Source: Rhodobacterales bacterium (lineage in GTDB: Bacteria > Pseudomonadota > Alphaproteobacteria > Rhodobacterales > Rhodobacteraceae). From it: a stretch of DNA of 64,000 nucleotides. Below the pieces are notes generated by a model. It made no database searches, had not been told where the DNA came from, and worked only from the letters and a program-made list of their open reading frames with translations. Shown here in pieces: positions 4,239 through 63,600 of this stretch; position 1 is the stretch's first letter, and each line of letters begins with the position of its first letter. A program made the translations under genes and the position numbers. The DNA is taken from contig JAACUH010000067.1 in NCBI GenBank assembly GCA_009993005.1, positions 6,848 to 70,847 on the forward strand, written 5' to 3'.

Positions 4239-4265
4239 GGCGCCGGTCCTTTCGGTGAGGGGGGA

Positions 4266-4326
4266 GGGGGCGCTGCCCCCGCGCGCGTGCCGCGCGCCCC
4301 CCGGGATATTTGGGGCAAGATGAAGC
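4266..4326 (+). repeat. short structured repeat, copy 1 (GGGGGC-GCT-GCCCCC hairpin, GCGCGCG-TGC-CGCGCGC hairpin, CCCCCGGGATATTTGGGGCAAGATGAAGC box)
   Basis: Read directly from the sequence. It lies in the 95-nt spacer between the PfkB stop (4334) and the oxidoreductase start (4238). Related copies are at 21506, 41961, 59021(-) and 60382. Confidence 0.8.
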
Positions 4327-4333
4327 GGGGGGG

Positions 4334-5257
4334 TCAGCCCGGCGGCGGGGTCGGAGGGCTGTTGCCCTCCATCGGGCCGCGCACGGTCACGGCGCGGGCG
4401 CCGGCGGCATTGGCCTCGGACAGAGCGCGTGCAAAGGGCGTGCCGAGGGCGGTGAGGGCGATGTAGGTGGCGCAAAAGCAGTCGCCCGCGCCGGTGGGGT
4501 CGATCACGGTGGCGGGATCGGCCGGCAGGGAAATGACCGCGCGGCGGTCAGTGCCGATGCAGCCCGCGTCGCCACGCTTGAGCACGACGCTGTGCGCGTG
4601 GGGAAGGGCGGCGGCGAGGGCGGCGAAATCGGCGCCGGGCCAGAGTGCTGCGGCGTCTGCATCGGAGGGCAGGACGTGGTGCGACAGGGCGATGAGCGCG
4701 CGCAGGGTCTCGATGTAGCCTGCGTCGCGCAGGAGTTCGGGCCTGATGTTCGGGTCGATGGACAGAATGACGCCCTGCGGCACAAGTGAGTCGCAAACCG
4801 TGCGGGCGGTGGCGCGCAGGGCGGGGTCGCCCAGGGTCGAGCCGGAGATATGCAGATGGGTGACGCCGGCGGCGGCGAAACCGGCGACGATGGTCGCGGC
4901 GTCGGGCAGCATCGCGGCGGCGCTGTGGCCGATGTTGAACACGAAAGCGCGGCTGCCGTCGGAGGCATAGGCGACATGGGCGGTGCCTGTCGGCCTGTCT
5001 GTCACCGCGATCAGCCGGTCATCGACGCCATGCGCGCGCAGCCGGTCGAGGATCACGCGGCCGAAGGGATCGTCACCGACGGCCCCGGCAAAGACCGCCT
5101 GCCCGATGATCTGAGCGGCCTGGTCGATGAAGATGCCGGGCGCGCCGCTGGGAAAGGGGCCGATGTAGGGGGCGGGCCGCGCATGTTGCGTATCGGTGTC
5201 GGTGCAGACGAACTCTACCAGCAGCTCACCCAGCGCTGCGATGATCGGGCGGGACAT
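4334..5257 (-). CDS. PfkB-family carbohydrate kinase
   Basis: ORF 4334..5257 with the C-terminal DPTGAGDCF signature of ribokinase/PfkB kinases. Confidence 0.85.
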   Translation of the reverse strand: MSRPIIAALGELLVEFVCTDTDTQHARPAPYIGPFPSGAPGIFIDQAAQIIGQAVFAGAVGDDPFGRVILDRLRAHGVDDRLIAVTDRPTGTAHVAYASDGSRAFVFNIGHSAAAMLPDAATIVAGFAAAGVTHLHISGSTLGDPALRATARTVCDSLVPQGVILSIDPNIRPELLRDAGYIETLRALIALSHHVLPSDADAAALWPGADFAALAAALPHAHSVVLKRGDAGCIGTDRRAVISLPADPATVIDPTGAGDCFCATYIALTALGTPFARALSEANAAGARAVTVRGPMEGNSPPTPPPG

Positions 5258-11138: not shown

Positions 11139-11174
11139 CACACCGGCGTGGTGCGGGCTGGCAGCGGCGCGGAT

Positions 11175-11237
11175 GAGTATTTGGGCACAGAGAAATCCAG
11201 GCGCCGGCGCTCCCGGCTTCTCTGTGCCCAAATACTC
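11175..11237. repeat. perfect 20-bp inverted repeat (GAGTATTTGGGCACAGAGAA / TTCTCTGTGCCCAAATACTC) with 23-nt loop
   Basis: Read directly. It lies between the convergent SDR and ROK genes, and the right arm abuts the ROK stop codon. The arm resembles the GGATATTTGGGGCAAGA box of the repeat family. Confidence 0.85.
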
Positions 11238-12702
11238 AAACGCTGTCGGGGCCAGCCGCACCAAGCCATGACAGGAGCGCCGCGACATCCATGGGCATCG
11301 TCGTCCCGACCTCCCGCACCGGGCCCCGCGCCATCGGCCGCGCCCGGGTGGCGAGCGCGATGAGTTCTGGCACATAGTCCATCCCCGGGTGGCCGGGGTC
11401 GCGGGTGGCCACGCGGGCGGCATAGCGCGCGCCGATCTCTTCTGGCGGGGCATGGCACCAGATCTCGGCGATCTCGGTGATGCCGGCCCGCGCGAGGCCG
11501 GCGTCCAGCACCTCGGCCGGCTGGAAACCGAACCAGGCATCCATGATGAAGGTGCCGCCGGACGCGTCGGCGATCAGGTCAAAGATCGCATCATAGGCCG
11601 CGCGGCCCAGCCTGCGGTTCATCGGCCGGTCCACCGGGGCGAGCGTGGTGAGGAACGGGCCCTTGACGGTGTCGAGGGTCAGGCGCGGCCAGCCGGTCGC
11701 CTCGGCCAGCGCGCGTGCCACAGCACTTTTGCCGCTGGCGGGAACGCCGTTTACCATGATCAGCCGCTTGCGCAGGGGCGCGGGCAGCGCGCGCAGGCCG
11801 GCCAGTGCCGCGCCGATGACGCCCGCGTCGTCGCCGAGACGCGCGGCTGCGAGGGGGGCGTCGAACCAGGAATGCTCTGCGGGCACACGGCCGAGCGCGG
11901 CAACCATGGTCGCGCCCGCGCCGCCGCCGATCACCACAATGTCGGGATTGCAGATCGAAATCAGCGAATCGATGGCCGCCCGCAAGGGCCGGGCCCAGGC
12001 GTCGAGGACAGCGCCGGCGGCCGGGTCTTGACGCGCGAGCAGCGCCTCGGCGCGGGTATCGGCCGGCAGGCCGGCCGCGGCGAGATGGGTGGCAAAGGCG
12101 GTGCCGGAGCTCAGGGTCTCGACACAGCCAGTGCGGCCGCAGACACAGGGGCGACCATCAATATCGACCCTGATATGGCCCAACTGGCCTGCAAGGCCGC
12201 GCCCGCGCAGCACCTCACCGCCTGTGATCACAGCACCACCGATGCCCGTGCCGATGGTCAACAACACCGCGTTCGCCATGCCCTTTGCGGCGCCAAAGGC
12301 AGCTTCGGCCAGCAGAGCCATGGTCGCGTCATTCTCGACGGCGACAGGCAGGCCTGCGCCCGCCTCGACCAGCGCCGCAAAAGGCAGCGCGCTGAGGTCC
12401 ACATAGCCGCCCGACAGCACCCTGCGCGCCGCCGCATCGACCTGGCCGGGGATGCCGATACCGATGGCGGCAACCTGAGGCCTGCGCACCCGTTCGATCA
12501 GGTCAAGGCAGCGCCCCAGCACCACCTGCGGGTCGGGGTCGCTCGGCGCATGGGCGCGGGCGAGGATCTGGCCGTCGTCCGCCACGAGGGCCGCGCGCAT
12601 ATGCGTGCCGCCGATGTCTATGCCGATGGCGGGGCCGATGGCGGGGCCGATAGCGGGGCCGATGGCGGGGCCGATAGCGGGGCCGATGGCGGGGCGGGTC
12701 AT
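11236..12702 (-). CDS. ROK-family sugar kinase fused to a C-terminal P-loop (AAA_33/gluconokinase-like) kinase domain
   Basis: ORF 11236..12702. The ROK part has IDIGGT and the zinc motif CVCGRTGCVE. The C-terminal ~170 aa carry Walker A GVPASGKS. The N-terminus carries a (PAIG)x6 repeat. Confidence 0.8.
   Translation of the reverse strand: MTRPAIGPAIGPAIGPAIGPAIGPAIGIDIGGTHMRAALVADDGQILARAHAPSDPDPQVVLGRCLDLIERVRRPQVAAIGIGIPGQVDAAARRVLSGGYVDLSALPFAALVEAGAGLPVAVENDATMALLAEAAFGAAKGMANAVLLTIGTGIGGAVITGGEVLRGRGLAGQLGHIRVDIDGRPCVCGRTGCVETLSSGTAFATHLAAAGLPADTRAEALLARQDPAAGAVLDAWARPLRAAIDSLISICNPDIVVIGGGAGATMVAALGRVPAEHSWFDAPLAAARLGDDAGVIGAALAGLRALPAPLRKRLIMVNGVPASGKSAVARALAEATGWPRLTLDTVKGPFLTTLAPVDRPMNRRLGRAAYDAIFDLIADASGGTFIMDAWFGFQPAEVLDAGLARAGITEIAEIWCHAPPEEIGARYAARVATRDPGHPGMDYVPELIALATRARPMARGPVREVGTTMPMDVAALLSWLGAAGPDSV
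12622..12693 (-). repeat. 12-bp tandem repeat x6 (GCCGATGGCGGG / GCCGATAGCGGG) encoding (PAIG)6
   Basis: Read directly. The repeat is in-frame at the 5' end of the ROK gene, immediately before the IDIGGT ATP-binding motif. Confidence 0.95.
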
Positions 12703-21492: not shown

Positions 21493-21505
21493 CCTGCGGA
21501 AGCCT

Positions 21506-21535
21506 CCGGCGGGGATATTTTTGGCAAGATGAAGC
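21506..21535 (+). repeat. short structured repeat, degenerate copy (3' box only: CCGGCGGGGATATTTTTGGCAAGATGAAGC)
   Basis: Read directly. It lies in a convergent spacer between the hypothetical gene and the VWA gene. Confidence 0.6.
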
Positions 21536-40938: not shown

Positions 40939-41939
40939 CCCTCGATATCCCCAATCTCAAGGACTTCGACCAGCGCCTGCGCGACGAAGCGCATGAAGAG
41001 CCGACGCTCGAGGTGCCGCAGGGCGAGCCCACGAAGCATACCCAGATCATCGCGATCTATGGCAAGGGCGGTATCGGCAAATCCTTTACGCTCGCCAATC
41101 TCAGCCACATGATGGCCGAAATGGGCAAGCGGGTGCTGCTGATCGGCTGCGACCCCAAGTCCGACACCACGAGCCTCCTGTTCGGCGGCAAGGCCTGCCC
41201 GACGATCATCGAAACCTCGAGCCGCAAGAAGCTTGCCGGCGAAGAGGTTGCCATCGGTGACGTATGCTTCAAGCGCGGCGGTGTCTTTGCGATGGAGCTT
41301 GGCGGGCCCGAGGTCGGGCGCGGCTGCGGCGGGCGCGGGATCATCCACGGCTTTGAGCTGCTGGAGAAGCTGGGCTTTCATGACTGGGATTTCGACTATG
41401 TGCTGCTCGATTTTCTGGGCGACGTGGTCTGCGGCGGCTTTGGCCTGCCGATCGCGCGGGACATGGCGCAAAAGGTGATCCTGGTCGGGTCGAACGATCT
41501 GCAATCGCTTTATGTCGCCAACAACGTCTGTTCGGCGGTGGAGTATTTCCGCAAGCTCGGCGGCAATGTCGGCGTGGCGGGGCTCGTGATCAACAAGGAT
41601 GACGGCACCGGCGAGGCGCAGGCCTTTGCCAGGGCTGTCGGTATCCCGGTGCTGGCCGCGATCCCGCAGGACGACGATCTGCGCAAGAAATCCGCCAATT
41701 ACCAGATCGTCGGCACGATGCAGAGCCAATGGGGCCCGATGTTCGTGGGTCTGGCCGAGGCGGTGGGCCTTGCCCCGCCGGTGCGGCCCAAGGCGCTCAA
41801 CCAGGACGGGCTGCTCGCGCTGTTCGATGCCAAGGATACCGGCGGCGACTATCAACTTGTGCCTGCCAGTGACGCCGACATGCGCGGCAAGTTCGCGGTC
41901 GTGCGGGAAAGCCTCGAGGTCATCTATGACGATGCGTGA
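40935..41939 (+). CDS. bchX: chlorophyllide a reductase iron protein subunit X
   Basis: ORF track 40764..41939, trimmed to ATG 40935 (ATGA overlap with bchC). It has the NifH-like P-loop YGKGGIGKS and CGGFG. Confidence 0.95.
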
Positions 41940-41960
41940 TCTCATGGACGGCGCCGGCGC

Positions 41961-42023
41961 GGGGGCTCTGCCCCCCGTCCCCGATGGGGACGTCCCCCGG
42001 GATATTTCGGGCCAAAAGATGGA
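41961..42023 (+). repeat. short structured repeat, copy in bchX/bchY junction
   Basis: The sequence is GGGGGCTCTGCCCCCCG + GTCCCC-GAT-GGGGAC hairpin + GACGTCCCCCGGGATATTTCGGGCCAAAAGATGGA. The 17-nt and 35-nt modules are identical to copy 60382. Confidence 0.85.
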
Positions 42024-43515
42024 TGCGGGTCTGCCTGTGGATGGCATGGGCTGTCATGCCGGGGCGGGTGCGCTGCAGGCGGCGGCGCGGGCGGCGGGCA
42101 AGTCCGAGATCCTGGATCAATATGCGCGGGACTATCCGCAAGGGCCGCATGACCAGCCACAGTCGATGTGCCCGGCCTTTGGGTCCTTGCGTGTGGGTCT
42201 GCGGATGCGGCGGGTGGCAACGGTGCTGTCGGGCTCGGCCTGCTGTGTCTATGGGCTGACCTTTGTCAGCCATTTCTACGGGGCGCGGCGGTCGGTCGGT
42301 TATGTGCCGTTCAACTCCGAGACGCTGGTCACGGGCAAGCTCTTTGAGGATATCCGCGAGGCGGTGCATGATATCGCGGACCCCGCGAATTATGACGCCA
42401 TCGTGGTGACGAACCTCTGTGTGCCGACTGCCTCGGGCGTGCCGCTGCGGCTTTTGCCGGATGAGATCAACGGCGTGCGGATCGTGGGGATCGACGTGCC
42501 GGGCTTTGGCATTCCGACCCATGCCGAGGCCAAGGATGTGCTGGCGGGCGCGATGCTGGCCTATGCGCGCAAGGAAATCATGGCGGGGCCGGTGGCGGCG
42601 CCTGTGGGCGGCAAGTCGGACCGGCCGACCGTGAGCCTTTTGGGCGAGATGTTTCCCGCCGATCCGGTGATGATCGGCGCGATGCTGGCGCCGCTGGGGC
42701 TGGCCGTGGGGCCGGTTGTGCCGGCGCGCGAATGGCGCGAGCTTTATGCCGCGCTTGACTGCGGGGCGGTGGCGGCGATCCATCCGTTCTATACGGCGGC
42801 TGTGCGTGAGTTCGAGGCGGCAGGGCGGCCCGTGGTCGGCTCGGCGCCGGTGGGCCATGACGGCACGGCGGCCTGGCTGGCCGCGATCGGCGACGCGTTC
42901 GGTCTGCCGGCTGACCGCGTCGCGGCAGCGCAGAACGCATTCCTGCCAGCGATCAGGGGCGCGCTGGCGGCGGCGCCGATCAAGGGGACGATCACGCTGT
43001 CGGGCTATGAGGGGTCGGAACTGCTGGTCGCGCGGCTGCTGATCGAGAGTGGCGCGGATGTGCCCTATGTCGGCACCGCCTGTCCGAAAACCCGCTGGTC
43101 CGCCGATGACGCCGCATGGCTCGAGGCGCGCGGCGTCAAGGTCAAGTATCGCGCCAGTCTTCAGGATGACCTGTCGGCGATGGAGGCGATCCGCCCCGAC
43201 CTCGCCATCGGCACGACGCCTGTCGTGCAGAAGGCCAAGGAGATGGGCGTGCCGGGGCTCTATTTCACCAACCTCATCTCTGCCCGGCCGCTGATGGGGC
43301 CGGCGGGGGCGGGTTCGCTCGGCCAGGTGATCAATGCCGCGATTGCGGGCAAGGATCGCATGGACAAGATGAAGGCGTTCTTTGCCGGTGTGGGCGAAGG
43401 CGACACCGCCGGGATCTGGGAGGGCAGCCCCAACCTGCGCCCCGATTTCCGTGCGCAGCATCAGAAGAAGCTCGACAAACTGGCGCGCGCGGCCAAGGCC
43501 GAGGAGATGATCTGA
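42019..43515 (+). CDS. bchY: chlorophyllide a reductase subunit Y
   Basis: Frame of ORF 41599..43515. ATG 42019 ([18 protein letters not shown]...) is the start closest to the conserved BchY N-terminus. In-frame ATGs at 41926, 41932 and 41944 would add a repeat-encoded extension. [17 protein letters not shown] is present. Confidence 0.9.
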
Positions 43516-50062: not shown

Positions 50063-50147
50063 GGCAAAGAGGGTGGCAAAGAGGGTGGCAAAGAGGGTGG
50101 CAAAGAGGGTGGCAAAGAGGGTGGCGGAGGAGGGTGGCGGACGGCGC
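50063..50147. repeat. 12-bp tandem repeat GGCAAAGAGGGT x5 plus two degenerate units
   Basis: Read directly. It fills essentially the whole 87-nt spacer between the dxs stop (50060) and the convergent hypothetical gene stop (50148). Confidence 0.95.
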
Positions 50148-57201: not shown

Positions 57202-59015
<1,814 letters not shown>

Positions 59016-59020
59016 CCCCG

Positions 59021-59071
59021 TTCATCTTTTGGCCAGAAATATCCTCGGGGGTCCGGGGGCAGACAGCCCCC
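59021..59071 (-). repeat. short structured repeat, inverted copy in bchN/bchB spacer
   Basis: The reverse complement reads GGGGGC-TGTCT-GCCCCC GGACCCCCGAGGATATTTCTGGCCAAAAGATGAA. It lacks the second hairpin. Confidence 0.8.
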
Positions 59072-59082
59072 GGCGGCCAGCC

Positions 59083-60648
59083 ATGAAGCTCACCGTCTGG
59101 ACATACGAGGGCCCGCCCCATGTCGGCGCCATGCGCGTCGCCACCGCGATGAAGGGGCTGCATTACGTCCTGCACGCGCCGCAGGGCGACACCTATGCCG
59201 ACCTCCTGTTCACCATGATCGAGCGGCGCAACCACCGCCCGCCCGTCACCTACACCACCTTCCAGGCGCGCGACCTCGGCGCCGACACGGCGCTCTTGTT
59301 CAAGGAGGCCTGCCGCGACGCGGTCGAACGCTTCGCCCCGCAGGCGATCATCGTGGGCGCCTCCTGCACGGCGGAACTGATCCAGGACGATCCCGCAGGT
59401 CTGGCCGAAACCATGGGCCTGTCGATCCCGGTGATCCCGCTCGAGCTTCCCTCCTACCAGCGCAAGGAAAACTACGGCGCGGACGAGACCTTCCTGCAGA
59501 TCGTGCGCCACCTTTCGCGCCCGCAGAACCGCACCGCGCGCGTGACCTGCAACATCCTCGGCGCCACCGCGCTGGGGTTCCGCCATCGCGACGATGTCGA
59601 GGAAATCACCGGCCTGCTGTCCGACCTCGGTGTCGAGGTGAATGTGGTGGCGCCGCTCGGGGCCACGCCAGCCGACATCGCCCGCCTGCCCGCGGCGCAT
59701 TTCAATGTGCTCCTTTACCCCGAGACCGCGGAAGCCGCCGCGCGCTGGCTGGAAAAGACCCATGGCCAGCCCTGGACGAAAACCGTCCCGCTCGGCGTCG
59801 GCGCGACCCGCGATTTCATTGCCGAAGTGCAGGCGATCACCGGGCTTGCGGCCACGGCCGATGAAGGCCGCCTGCGCCAGCCCTGGTGGAGCCGGTCGGT
59901 GGACAGCACCTATCTGACCGGCAAGCGGGTGTTCCTCTTTGGCGACGGCACCCATGTCATCGCCGCCGCGCGGATCGCGCGCGACGAGATGGGCTTCGAG
60001 GTCGCGGGGCTGGGCTGCTACAACCGCGAGATGGCGCGGCCGGTGCGGGCCCTGGCCAAGGCGATGGGCCTCGAGGCGCTGATCACCGACGACTACCTGG
60101 AGGTCGAGGCGGCGATTGCCGCTCTTGCCCCGGAGATGATCCTCGGCACCCAGATGGAGCGGCATATCGGCAAGCGGCTGGGCATCCCCTGTGCCGTGAT
60201 CTCTGCTCCGGTGCATGTGCAGGATTTCCCCGCGCGCTACAGCCCGCAGATGGGGTTCGAAGGCGCGAATGTGATCTTTGACACCTGGATCCATCCGCTG
60301 GTGATGGGGCTCGAGGAACATCTGCTGACCATGTTCCGCGACGATTTCGAGTTCCACGACGAGGCGGGTGCGTCGCATCACGGGGGCTCTGCCCCCCGCC
60401 GGCCTGCGGCCGACGTCCCCCGGGATATTTCGGGCCAAAAGATGGACGCGCCGGAGCCTGCGGTCGTGGCCGTTGCGACAGCAGACAATATCGTCTGGCT
60501 GGGCGATGCAGAGCGCGAGTTGAAGAAGATCCCGTTCTTTGTGCGCGGCAAGGCGCGGCGCAATACCGAAAGCTATGCGGCGGCGAAAGGGCTGAGCCAG
60601 ATCAGCATCGACACGCTTTACGAGGCAAAGGCCCATTATGCGCGATAG
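59083..60648 (+). CDS. bchB: light-independent protochlorophyllide reductase subunit B
   Basis: ORF track 58858..60648, trimmed to ATG 59083 ([43 protein letters not shown]). The C-terminal [14 protein letters not shown] domain is in the same frame. Confidence 0.95.
60382..60446 (+). repeat. short structured repeat, copy embedded in-frame in bchB
   Basis: The sequence is GGGGGCTCTGCCCCCCG + CGGCC-TGC-GGCCG hairpin + GACGTCCCCCGGGATATTTCGGGCCAAAAGATGGA. It is translated as ...[23 protein letters not shown]... within the BchB linker. Confidence 0.85.
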
Positions 60649-63600
60649 CAGCGATCAGGGCGCGTTCCGTTTCGTGGTGATCACGCTGGACAGCCATGCG
60701 GCCGGCCCGGCGCTGCGGGTGCGGGCGCGGCTGGCGGCGGATTATCCGGGGCTCGAGGTGGCGATCCATGCGGCGGCGGAATGGGGCGAGAACCCGGCCG
60801 CGCTGGCCAACGCGCGCCAGGATATCGCGCGGGCCAATATCATCGTCACCAACCTGCTGTTCCTCGAAGAGCATACCGCCGCGATCATGCCGGACCTGCT
60901 GGCGCGGCGCGATCATTGCGATGCGATGGTCAACCTGATTTCGGACCAGTCCATCGTGCGGCTCACCCGGATGGGCGATCTCGACATGACGCGGCCGGCG
61001 TCGGGGGCGATGAAGCTCCTGAAATCGCTCAAGCCGTCCAAGGGCAGTTCGGCGAGTGGTGCCAAGACGATGAAGGCGCTGCGCACGCTGCCCAAGCTGT
61101 TGCGGCTCATTCCCGGCAAGGCGCAGGATCTGCGCGCCTGGTTCCTGTCGATGCAATACTGGCTGGGCGGGTCGGACGACAATATCGAACAGATGATCCG
61201 GTTCCTGCTGGCGCGCTATGCAGAGCGCCCGGACTGGGCGCTGGTCAAGGCGAATGCGCCGATCGAATATCCCGAGGTGGGCGTCTATCACCCCGATCTG
61301 CCCGGCCATCACATCACCACCGACATTGCCGCGCTGCCGTCGCCTGTGGCACCTGTCGCGACGGTTGGTCTGTTGATGCTGCGGTCCTACATCCTGTCGT
61401 CGGACAATGCGCATTACAACGCGGTCATCCGCGCCTTTGAGGCCAAGGGGATGCGGGTCATTGCGGCCTTTGCCGGTGGGCTCGACGGGCGGCCGGCGGT
61501 GGAGGCCTATTTCAAGGGGCGGGTCGATGCGCTGGTGTCGCTGACCGGGTTCTCTCTGGTCGGCGGGCCGGCCTATAACGACAGTGAGGCGGCGGTGGCG
61601 ATGCTTGCGGACCTCGACGTGCCCTATATCGCCGCACATCCGCTCGAGTTCCAGACGCTGGGGCAATGGGCGGGGGCGGCGCAGGGGCTGGGGCCGATCG
61701 AGACGACGATGCTCGTGGCGCTGCCCGAGATCGACGGTGCGACCAACCCGACCGTCTATGCCGGGCGTCATGGGCCCGATGGCTGCACGGGCTGTGCTGC
61801 CGGATGTGCCGCGCAATCGGATTGCAAGGCGATGGCGCCCTGCCACGAGCGCATCGCGGTGCTGGCGGAAAAGACGCTGCGCCTCGCGCGGTTGCGGCAG
61901 TTGGGCAATGCCGACAAGAAGGTCGCGGTGGTGCTCTTCGGATTTCCGCCCAATGCGGGCGCGGTGGGCACGGCCGCCTATCTGAGCGTGTTCGAGAGCC
62001 TGCACAACACGCTGCGGCGGATGGCGGATGATGGCTACCGCGTCGATGTGCCCGCCACGGTCGATGATCTGCGCGCGGCGATCCTGCATGGCAATGCGCG
62101 CACCTATGGGCAGGAGGCCAATGTCGCGGCCCATGTCGATGCCGACACGATCGTGCGCGCCACGCCGCATCTGGCCGAGGTCGAGGCTGTCTGGGGCCCG
62201 GCGCCCGGCAAGATCCAGTCGGACGGGCGCGGCGTCTTTGTCCTGGGCCAGCAGTTCGGCAATGTGTTCGTGGGGGTGCAGCCGACCTTTGGCTATGAGG
62301 GCGACCCGATGCGCCTGCTATTCGAGCGCGGCTTTGCGCCGACGCATGCCTTTGTGCAGTTCTACCTGTGGCTGCGCAACAGCTTTGCCGCCGATGTGGT
62401 GCTGCATTTCGGGATGCATGGCGCGCTCGAGTTCATGCCGGGCAAGCAGGCGGGGATGGGGGCGGCGGACTGGCCGGACCGGCTGATCGGCGAGATGCCC
62501 AATGTCTATCTCTACGCCGCCAACAACCCCTCCGAGGCGTCGCTGGCCAAGCGGCGCAGCAATGCGGTGACGGTGACGCATCTGACGCCGCCGCTGGCTG
62601 CGGCCGGGCTCTACAAGGGGCTGGCGGACCTCAAGGACAGTCTGTCGCGCTGGCGGGTGATGGAGGCGGATGCGCATGGGCGCGCCGATCTGCTCGCGCT
62701 GATCCGCGATCAGGCGGCGGCGGTCGATCTGGCGGCGACCGACCCGGACAGGCTCTGGCTGGCCGTGCTCGAGACCGAAGGCTCGCTGATCCCCGATGGG
62801 CTGCATATCGTGGGGCGCCCGATGGCGGCGCAGGCGCGGGCCGAGATGCTGGCGCTGATGCCGCAGGCGAGCGATGCCGAGATGGCGCGGCTCGATGCGC
62901 TGCTGTCGCAGGATCATGAGCTTCCCGCGCTGATGCGGGCGCTGGGCGCGCGGTTCATCGCGCCAGTGCCGGGGGGCGACCTGATCCGGTCGCCGCAGAT
63001 CATGCCGACGGGGCGCAATATCCATGCCTTCGATCCGTTCCGCATGCCCACCGCGCATGCGCTGGCCGAGGGGATGCGGCAGGCCGATCTGCTGATCGCC
63101 ACGCATCAGAGCCTGCCGCGGTCGGTCGCGCTGGTGCTCTGGGGGTCGGACAACATCAAGTCGGACGGCACGCCGATTGCGCAGGCGCTGGCGCTGATGG
63201 GCGCGCGCCCGCGGTTTGACGGCTATGGAAGGCTCTCGGGCGCGGATCTGATCCCGCTGGCAGAGCTTGGCCGGCCGCGGGTCGATGTGGTGATGACGCT
63301 CTCGGGGATCTTTCGAGACCTGCTGCCGCTGCAAAGCCGGATGCTGGCCGAGGCCGCGCTGAAATGCGCGATGGCCGATGAGCCGGTCGCGCAGAACTTT
63401 GTGCGGGCCCATGCGCTCGCGCATATGGAGGCGATGGGCTGCGACATCGAGACGGCCGCGCTGCGGGTGTTCTCGAACGCCGAGGGTGCCTATGGCGCGA
63501 ATGTGAACGCGCTGGTGGACAGCTCTGCCTTTGGCGACGAGGACGAGCTCGCCGATGCCTATGAGGCGCGCAAGAGCTTTGCCTATGGCGTGAACGGCAA

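Follow-up and report, generated by a model that had tools for sequence, protein, structure and literature searches.

A mosaic repeat of the Rhodobacterales translated in-frame within a variable linker of the DPOR subunit BchB

Introduction

How does a repeat which normally lies between genes come to be translated inside a conserved enzyme, and what keeps its sequence from decaying there? The question is raised by the gene bchB, which encodes subunit B of DPOR, in a stretch of 64,000 nucleotides (nt) of an uncultured Rhodobacterales bacterium (contig JAACUH010000067.1; the whole stretch is called the window below, or WIN when it is set beside other genomes) whose DNA is part of a photosynthesis gene cluster: inside bchB, an element of 65 nt made of three modules is read in-frame and encodes 22 extra hydrophilic residues. 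This element belongs to a family of mosaic interspersed repeats which is distributed across the Rhodobacterales and is similar to the repetitive extragenic palindromic (REP) sequences and bacterial interspersed mosaic elements (BIME). Our preferred reading, to which we give a probability of roughly 0.6, is that the copy in bchB is a tolerated, translated passenger of a disordered linker, and that turnover at the DNA level would keep its sequence similar to that of the family. In the following, L with three digits denotes a DNA locus, and P with four digits a protein, of the relatives compared.

Results

An intact bchB carries a copy of the repeat

The product of bchB scores 607.5 bits against the NCBIfam model TIGR01278 (the BchB equivalog, cut-off 490.35), with residues 1-519 aligned, and the BchB chains of the PDB match it with a best E value of 7e-274. 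Since the equivalog match extends over the full length, we concluded that the gene is intact despite its insert. The protein is 100% identical to GenBank NCO86634.1, a protein of a Rhodobacterales metagenome-assembled genome, and records of several sources (NCBI, JGI, ENA) list the exact sequence of 521 residues on 11 contigs, so that an assembly artefact is unlikely.

The element reads GGGGGCTCTGCCCCCC / GCCGGCCTGCGGCCGACG / TCCCCCG GGATATTTCGGGCCAAAAGATG GA (its modules, and the other features discussed below, are located in Table 1). An earlier note on this DNA had described it as a structured repeat of non-coding type translated within BchB, with a 3' module of 35 nt identical to that of a copy at the junction of bchX and bchY; both statements are confirmed, as the open reading frame (ORF) crosses the element without a stop and 60412-60446 is 100% identical to 41989-42023. 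At the other end of the element, the 18 nt at 60381-60398 are identical to 41960-41977. A core pattern of 29 nt has 2 matches in the window, where 0.00 are expected from 100 shuffles.

The palindromes lying between the identical modules of 60382-60446 and 41961-42023 were seen to be unrelated to each other (GCCGGCCTGCGGCCGAC and GTCCCCGATGGGGAC, respectively).

Table 1. Location in the window of bchB, of its linker and of the copies of the repeat
Feature	Position	Strand	Basis
bchB coding sequence (DPOR subunit B, 521 residues), intact	59083..60648	+	translation without internal stop; TIGR01278; identical to NCO86634.1
Hypervariable interdomain linker of BchB, codons 425-470	60355..60492	+	alignment of 36 orthologues; AlphaFold2
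Element copy inside bchB, three modules, in-frame, residues 434-455	60382..60446	+	ORF read-through; box profile; module anatomy
Module 1, hairpin GGGGGC-TCT-GCCCCC(C), read G G S A P	60382..60397	+	predicted hairpin; identical to 41961-41976
Module 2, variable palindrome GCCGGCC-TGC-GGCCGAC(G), read R R P A A D	60398..60415	+	
Module 3, TCCCCCG + box GGATATTTCGGGCCAAAAGATG(GA), read (V)PRDISGQKM(D)	60416..60446	+	box profile, E = 8e-8
Three-module copy with generic box (GGATATTTGGGGCAAGATGAAG), between a PfkB kinase gene and a GFO/IDH/MocA oxidoreductase gene	4266..4325	+	
Type B copy (GCCTCCGGCGG + box), 14 nt from the stop of a convergent DUF2201 gene	21502..21534	+	
Three-module copy at the bchX stop / bchY 5' end	41961..42023	+	
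Two-module copy in the bchN-bchB spacer	59016..59071	-	

The repeat family

The bchB copy shares its three-module anatomy with 38 other copies from many genera, which define type A: a G4-7/C4-7 hairpin, a slot, (A/T)CCCCCG and a box, GGATATTTnnGGC(..)AAGA(T/A)G. The slot between the first hairpin and the box holds either 2-8 nt which are not palindromic or at least 9 nt which almost always form a palindrome, of unrelated sequence from copy to copy; 18 of the 22 spacers of at least 9 nt among these 38 copies fold better than 95% of their shuffles. Family-wide, the slot seems to behave as a hypervariable palindromic cassette. The most conserved part of the family is the box, GGATATTTnnGGCAAGATGAA, which is AT-rich and not palindromic. 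In a second form, type B, GCCTCCGGCGG precedes the box, as at position 21502 of the window. With a profile of the box, exactly five copies are found in the window at E <= 2e-7 (near 4295, 21502, 41991, 59017 on the minus strand, and 60413), the next match having E = 0.66.

We scanned one genome per species with the pattern GGATATTTN{1,4}GGCN{0,2}AAGAWG and obtained at least 119 loci, which are a sample and not a census. About half of the 119 matches listed belong to Rhodobacterales of many genera (Paracoccus, Rhodobacter, Phaeovulum, Tabrizicola, Cypionkella, Roseovarius, Thalassobius, Seohaeicola, Shimia, Litoreibacter and Aliiroseovarius); the remaining ones come from unrelated taxa, most of which have a lower G+C, and are bare chance matches devoid of the flanking modules. 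All of the 11 plasmid records matching the copy at 4262-4335 are from Rhodobacterales, and non-phototrophs, as well as plasmids which have nothing to do with photosynthesis, also carry the family. Among the matches listed, about 95% of the copies are intergenic and about 5% lie in ORFs: out of some 60 family copies (taken from 81 pattern matches in the G+C-rich loci listed, which include some chance matches), no more than three, the bchB copy among them, are in plausible ORFs, as judged by a simple composition-based filter requiring a coding-type composition on both sides. The intergenic copies occur in both orientations, and many either occupy the spacer between two cistrons or have their end at 1-30 nt from the stop codon of a gene encoded on the other strand.

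No Rfam covariance model reached its gathering score anywhere in the window, nor E <= 10 for 60200-60650; a search of a protein database with the concatenated repeat peptides gave 15 word candidates, none of which scored; and no description of a Rhodobacterales repeat of matching sequence was found in the searchable literature. The family, which is found across the order and has the unusual anatomy of an AT-rich box joined to a slot for hypervariable palindromes, appears to be undescribed.

Two further features were considered and discarded. Some copies have a stem closing around the box (CCCCG...CGGGG at 59016, CCGGC...GCCGG at 21513), which is inconsistent across the family. A long variant of the box (..CCAAAAGA..) is not specific to the photosynthesis cluster, similar sequences (..CCAGAAGAAG and ..GGGCAGAAGAAG) being found in the unrelated loci L078 and L113.

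Some copies were seen to be paired. In the type B copies of L021, L029 and L020, the leader is often preceded by its inverse complement (CCGCCGGAGGC ... GCCTCCGGCGG), and L020 also holds part of an inverted box; these pairings suggest that the element can form a long hairpin or exist as an inverted dimer. In L049 and L082, pairs of boxes stand tail to tail.

The insertion site is a variable linker of BchB

When 36 orthologues are aligned, the length of BchB varies from 507 to 540 residues, and essentially all of this variation falls within a single segment, which begins after FEFHDxAGxSHHGG and ends before a conserved C-terminal block led by V or I. In the AlphaFold2 model calculated with the orthologue alignment, residues 409-466 have a pLDDT below 50 and the stretch from 418 to 470 is devoid of predicted secondary structure; the C-terminal domain is at about 90, so that the contrast is clear even if the mean of the whole model (70) is moderate. 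The solved structures of Rhodobacter BchB match the whole protein, with an alignment gapped exactly at the linker segment. Taken together, the confinement of the length variation to the linker, the low pLDDT and the gaps relative to the solved structures show the site to be permissive: the element sits in a linker, predicted to be disordered, joining the body of BchB to its C-terminal helical domain. The flexible, variable linker which the earlier note had named as the insertion site is indeed the only length-variable segment of the 36 orthologues, and the model predicts it to be disordered. For work on the structure and function of DPOR, this means that residues 434-455 are a dispensable-looking linker of non-protein origin.

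Many lineages have the element in this linker

The linkers of relatives with an identity of at least about 76% gave 169 distinct sequences, which we sorted with regular expressions, so that the following counts are estimates: 30 are of type A (a peptide containing ..GGx..), 28 of type B (..ASGGDIS..K..), 11 relic-like, and 100 have none of these. About 69 of the 169 linkers (roughly 35-40%) thus hold the element or a relic of it. At the DNA level, complete type A elements are found in the linkers of L123, L140, L144, L146, L174, L185, L201 and L202, with a second hairpin which differs at each locus (GTCGCCGCGAGCGGCGAC in L174, GCTGATCGTGCCGATCAGC in L185, a hairpin of 40 nt in L140), and type B elements in those of L121, L130, L204, L207 and L208. 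Every bchB copy seen has one and the same orientation and frame; by inspection, the window copy has no stop in any of its six frames.

The filled and empty states of the site are found in close relatives. The sister L120, 89% identical, has KAVEREAEVV in place of the element of the window, and in a neighbouring clade (P0003-P0006, L204) a type B element lies between KAVERE and AEV; P0011 is equal to P0012 plus an insert of 30 residues. Related clades hold type B in place of type A, and whole clades have relic-like motifs (SLEGKMKPE, LSISGKKK). In the sister pair P0044/P0056, the part of the linker formed by the element is more conserved than the rest of it. The insertion had been treated in the earlier note as a single event; on this sampling of sequences, the occupancy of the linker is in fact recurrent or persistent across the order. 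The same note held that the intergenic copies would be the derived ones if distant BchB proteins had the same peptide in genomes lacking the repeat: the peptide is there, but those genomes hold intergenic copies, and this, with the presence of the family in non-phototrophs and on plasmids, gives the direction as from the element to bchB.

The copies are conserved as DNA

In five type B carriers of different clades, identical residues inside the element use the same codon in 46 out of 46 pairwise comparisons, against a codon identity of 49% and 55% in the two conserved blocks which flank it. The six type A carriers compared all have CCC CGG GAT ATT unchanged, even though bchB uses GAT and ATT less often than their synonyms (8 GAT versus 22 GAC, 3 ATT versus 24 ATC). 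The right half of the box varies from one genome to another (for example GGCCAAAAG, GGACAGAAA and GAACAAAAG), and there the type A carriers keep the residues G/E-Q-K by means of different codons (GGC/GGA, CAA/CAG, AAG/AAA).

The variant of the box found in bchB is also that of the intergenic copies of the same genome, in a comparison which rests on three genomes: GGCCAAAAGATG in three copies of the window, GAACAAAAGAAG in three copies of L201 and GGCCAAAAGAAT in two copies of L204. These shared variants, together with the invariant codons, count against a neutral relic transmitted vertically and against selection on the peptide only; conservation is seen in the DNA rather than in the peptide. 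The pattern fits repeated insertion from the pool of copies of the genome, gene conversion with this pool, or coevolution of all the copies with a trans-acting factor.

Copies at other places of the photosynthesis cluster

The spacer between bchN and bchB is filled by the minus-strand copy, which extends from one base after the stop codon of bchN (59013-59015) to 11 nt before the ATG of bchB. A copy with the same position, orientation and hairpin (GGGGGCAGACAGCCCCC) is found in L201 (8989-9064) and L207 (9934-10000), and a variant form of it in L202 and L206; it is absent from L208. Some 35 identical nt (GGGGGCTGTCTGCCCCCGGACCCCCGAGGATATTT), which are non-coding, are shared by the spacers of WIN and L207. 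The window ends before the spacer between bchH and bchL, where copies are found in L201 (14226-14334), L206 (15126-15228) and L207 (15090-15195) in the forward orientation, and in L208 (15069-15132) in the inverted one.

No obvious Shine-Dalgarno sequence was noticed in the 11 nt which separate the hairpin of the bchN-bchB spacer from the ATG of bchB.

The copy at the junction of bchX and bchY (a region noticed at 41928-42060) replaces the conserved N-terminal motif of BchY (M..EVTYD..VI..), which is common to nearly all of 120 relatives; the peptide of the repeat is at the N-terminus of none of these 120 BchY proteins. Publicly recorded starts of bchY give 529 residues (from an ATG overlapping the stop of bchX, the element being translated), 523 residues, or 498 residues (from the ATG of the box, at 42017), and the NCBIfam model of BchY, which begins at residue 67 of the submitted ORF, leaves the start undecided. 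The claim that the repeat is read at this junction in the same phase as in bchB holds within the ORF which some gene callers take as bchY; with these three starts, its translation there is uncertain. The repeat family yields ambiguous start codons, as in bchY, and spurious calls of "hypothetical proteins".

On plasmid pROLI83 of Roseobacter litoralis (NZ_CP143425.1; L205, 2485-2667), a "hypothetical protein" of 60 residues is annotated directly over a copy of the element; it is probably a spurious ORF call due to the repeat.

Folding, expression signals and hallmarks of transposition

The folding of the region is no more stable than that of dinucleotide shuffles (z = -1.0, -0.2 and -1.0), and the notion of an unusually strong hairpin was given up. 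No promoter-like site was found, nor any terminator-like site (a GC-rich hairpin with a T-run behind it) on either strand of 58900-60750. Because of these two results, the translational pause or RNase site which had been proposed for the double hairpin has no computational support. When the five window copies, and the filled and empty sites of WIN and L120, were inspected, neither terminal inverted repeats nor target-site duplications were seen; the boundaries of the element are not sharp, which makes the test for duplications a weak one.

Discussion

What the preferred reading proposes

In the reading which we prefer, the element would have landed, or persisted, in-frame within the disordered, length-variable linker of BchB, as a passenger with presumably no required role in the enzyme, and its sequence would have been kept from decay by repeated insertion out of the other copies of the genome, or by gene conversion with them, rather than by selection on the peptide. 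The element of the window abuts the native HHGGHAP codons (GGCGGCCATGCCCC), which resemble module 1; this resemblance, and the fact that the element starts exactly there, suggest a deletion or replacement assisted by homology, which would have removed the ancestral segment KAVEREAEVV.

Several facts weigh against this reading. Neutral independent insertions would need a strong filter in order to end up in a single orientation and a single frame when six frames are open. The orthologous copies which lie in the spacers bchN-bchB and bchH-bchL have been kept almost base for base across genera, which looks more like maintenance than like junk. The second hairpin is a near-perfect palindrome inside a coding sequence in every lineage examined, and the inspection described above showed no hallmark of transposition.

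Other explanations of the conserved copies

The main rival explanation is one which we consider possible but on the whole unlikely: the element would be a selected cis-acting module (a site bound by a conserved factor, or a determinant of RNA stability or processing) set at three places of bchFNBHLM, namely the bchN-bchB spacer, the linker of bchB and the bchH-bchL spacer, the bchB copy being under a double constraint. This would account for synonymous sites being invariant within bchB, for the second hairpin being always palindromic whatever its sequence, for the conservation of the box across the whole order, for the bchN-bchB spacer copies of WIN and L207 with their 35 shared nt and those at the same position and orientation in L201, L202 and L206, and for the occupied bchH-bchL spacers of L201, L206, L207 and L208. 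However, a selected module should hardly be missing from some 100 of the 169 linkers or decayed to relics in some clades (for example GGGAGTTTACAGGGCAAGATG), the right half of its box drifts between genomes, its folding stability does not exceed that of shuffles, and no promoter or terminator consensus is found; gene conversion alone can explain the homogeneity of the nucleotides. That the box and hairpin form a functional cis-acting signal of Rhodobacterales operons, actively maintained at these three fixed places, is a more pointed form of the idea which we would advance only tentatively and with considerable doubt. If it were true, the linker of BchB would be an overlapping code, with 22 residues of the enzyme imposed by a constraint on nucleotides. 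In a related scenario, the element might home to the bchB site by some sequence-directed mechanism.

A single ancient insertion into the bchB of an ancestral Rhodobacterales, inherited vertically and decaying neutrally ever since, seems improbable to us. It would give directly the same site, orientation and frame everywhere, and relic-like motifs in whole clades, but it leaves unexplained why the bchB copy bears the box variant of its own genome and why one site holds two subtypes, A and B, and unrelated second hairpins. Nor does it agree with an identity of 35 nt out of 35 to a copy 18 kb away, when the flanking synonymous sites have a codon identity of about 50-68% between lineages.

Still less credit can be given to the domestication of the peptide ..PRDISGQKM.. 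as a functional linker motif of BchB, serving for instance in docking or regulation. The frame is indeed the same in all lineages, the G/E-Q-K residues of the type A carriers persist with differing codons, and in P0044/P0056 it is the element which is the more conserved part of the linker. Against this, the left half keeps the rare GAT and ATT with no synonymous change at all, codon differences follow the intergenic copies of each genome, the same DNA exists between genes in both orientations, and the motif is absent from most relatives and lies in a segment predicted to be disordered. Chance similarity, an artefact of assembly or a family derived from bchB can be practically dismissed, with zero matches expected in shuffles, the exact protein on 11 contigs of several sources, and the family occurring also in genera which are not phototrophic and on plasmids with no link to photosynthesis.

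Relation to known repeats

The REP sequences and BIME of enterobacteria, and the RIME elements of rhizobia, are abundant, GC-rich, hairpin-forming, mostly extragenic mosaics which lie near gene ends, either 3'-terminal or between the cistrons of an operon. The Rhodobacterales family resembles them in being abundant, GC-rich, able to form hairpins, mostly extragenic near gene ends, and a mosaic of conserved and variable modules; it differs from REP sequences and BIME in that its conserved core is an AT-rich box and not a stem, in its slot for hypervariable palindromes, and in its conservation over a whole order. REP sequences are defined as extragenic and seldom overlapping coding sequence, palindromic, short (14-40 nt), and sharing a consensus present in many copies per genome (PMC12306157). 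Our family is likewise extragenic, the bchB copy being the exception, and it has a consensus common to many genera with five copies in 64 kb. Its modules 1 and 2 are palindromic but its box is not, and its folding energies are like those of shuffles; with its two or three modules spanning about 40-70 nt, it is longer than a REP sequence and nearer to a composite of the BIME type.

The Rickettsia palindromic elements (RPEs) are dispersed repeats containing palindromes which insert in-frame in genes and are translated at positions compatible with the fold (PMC10969869). The element described here is like them in being inserted in-frame and translated at a structurally permissive position, but the similarity is one of behaviour only: RPEs are about 100-150 bp long and specific to Rickettsia, the Rhodobacterales element is about 40-70 nt long, is specific to its own order and has no sequence similarity to them; nearly half of the copies lie in ORFs in some RPE families, compared with about 5% here; and the Rhodobacterales element repeatedly occupies one site of one gene across many genera. 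Miniature inverted-repeat transposable elements (ERIC, BOX, QMITE of Coxiella, those of cyanobacteria) are small non-autonomous repeats which occasionally lie in ORFs and add a peptide (PMC10969869). Our element differs from these in having no terminal inverted repeat or target-site duplication visible on inspection of the five window copies, and in replacing native sequence in bchB and bchY instead of simply adding to it.

What is unusual is the recurrent or persistent occupancy of one linker and two neighbouring spacers in many genera. In-frame "selfish DNA in proteins", mainly known from Rickettsia, is thus met also in a free-living, high-GC and ecologically dominant order, and in a well-studied enzyme, and the copies at fixed positions of the photosynthesis operon offer a testable handle on the old question of whether such repeats are junk or regulatory parts at the level of the operon.

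Other repeats in the window

Finally we must note some repeats lying elsewhere in the window. At 11174-11239, a perfect inverted repeat of 21 nt (TGAGTATTTGGGCACAGAGAA ... TTCTCTGTGCCCAAATACTCA) has its arms 24 nt apart; as these resemble a diverged box, the whole may consist of two inverted copies of a related element. Tandem repeats with a unit of 12 nt were also noticed in two arrays, at 12610-12701 (about 7 units of GCCGATGGCGGG) and at 50063-50137 (about 6 units of GGCAAAGAGGGT).

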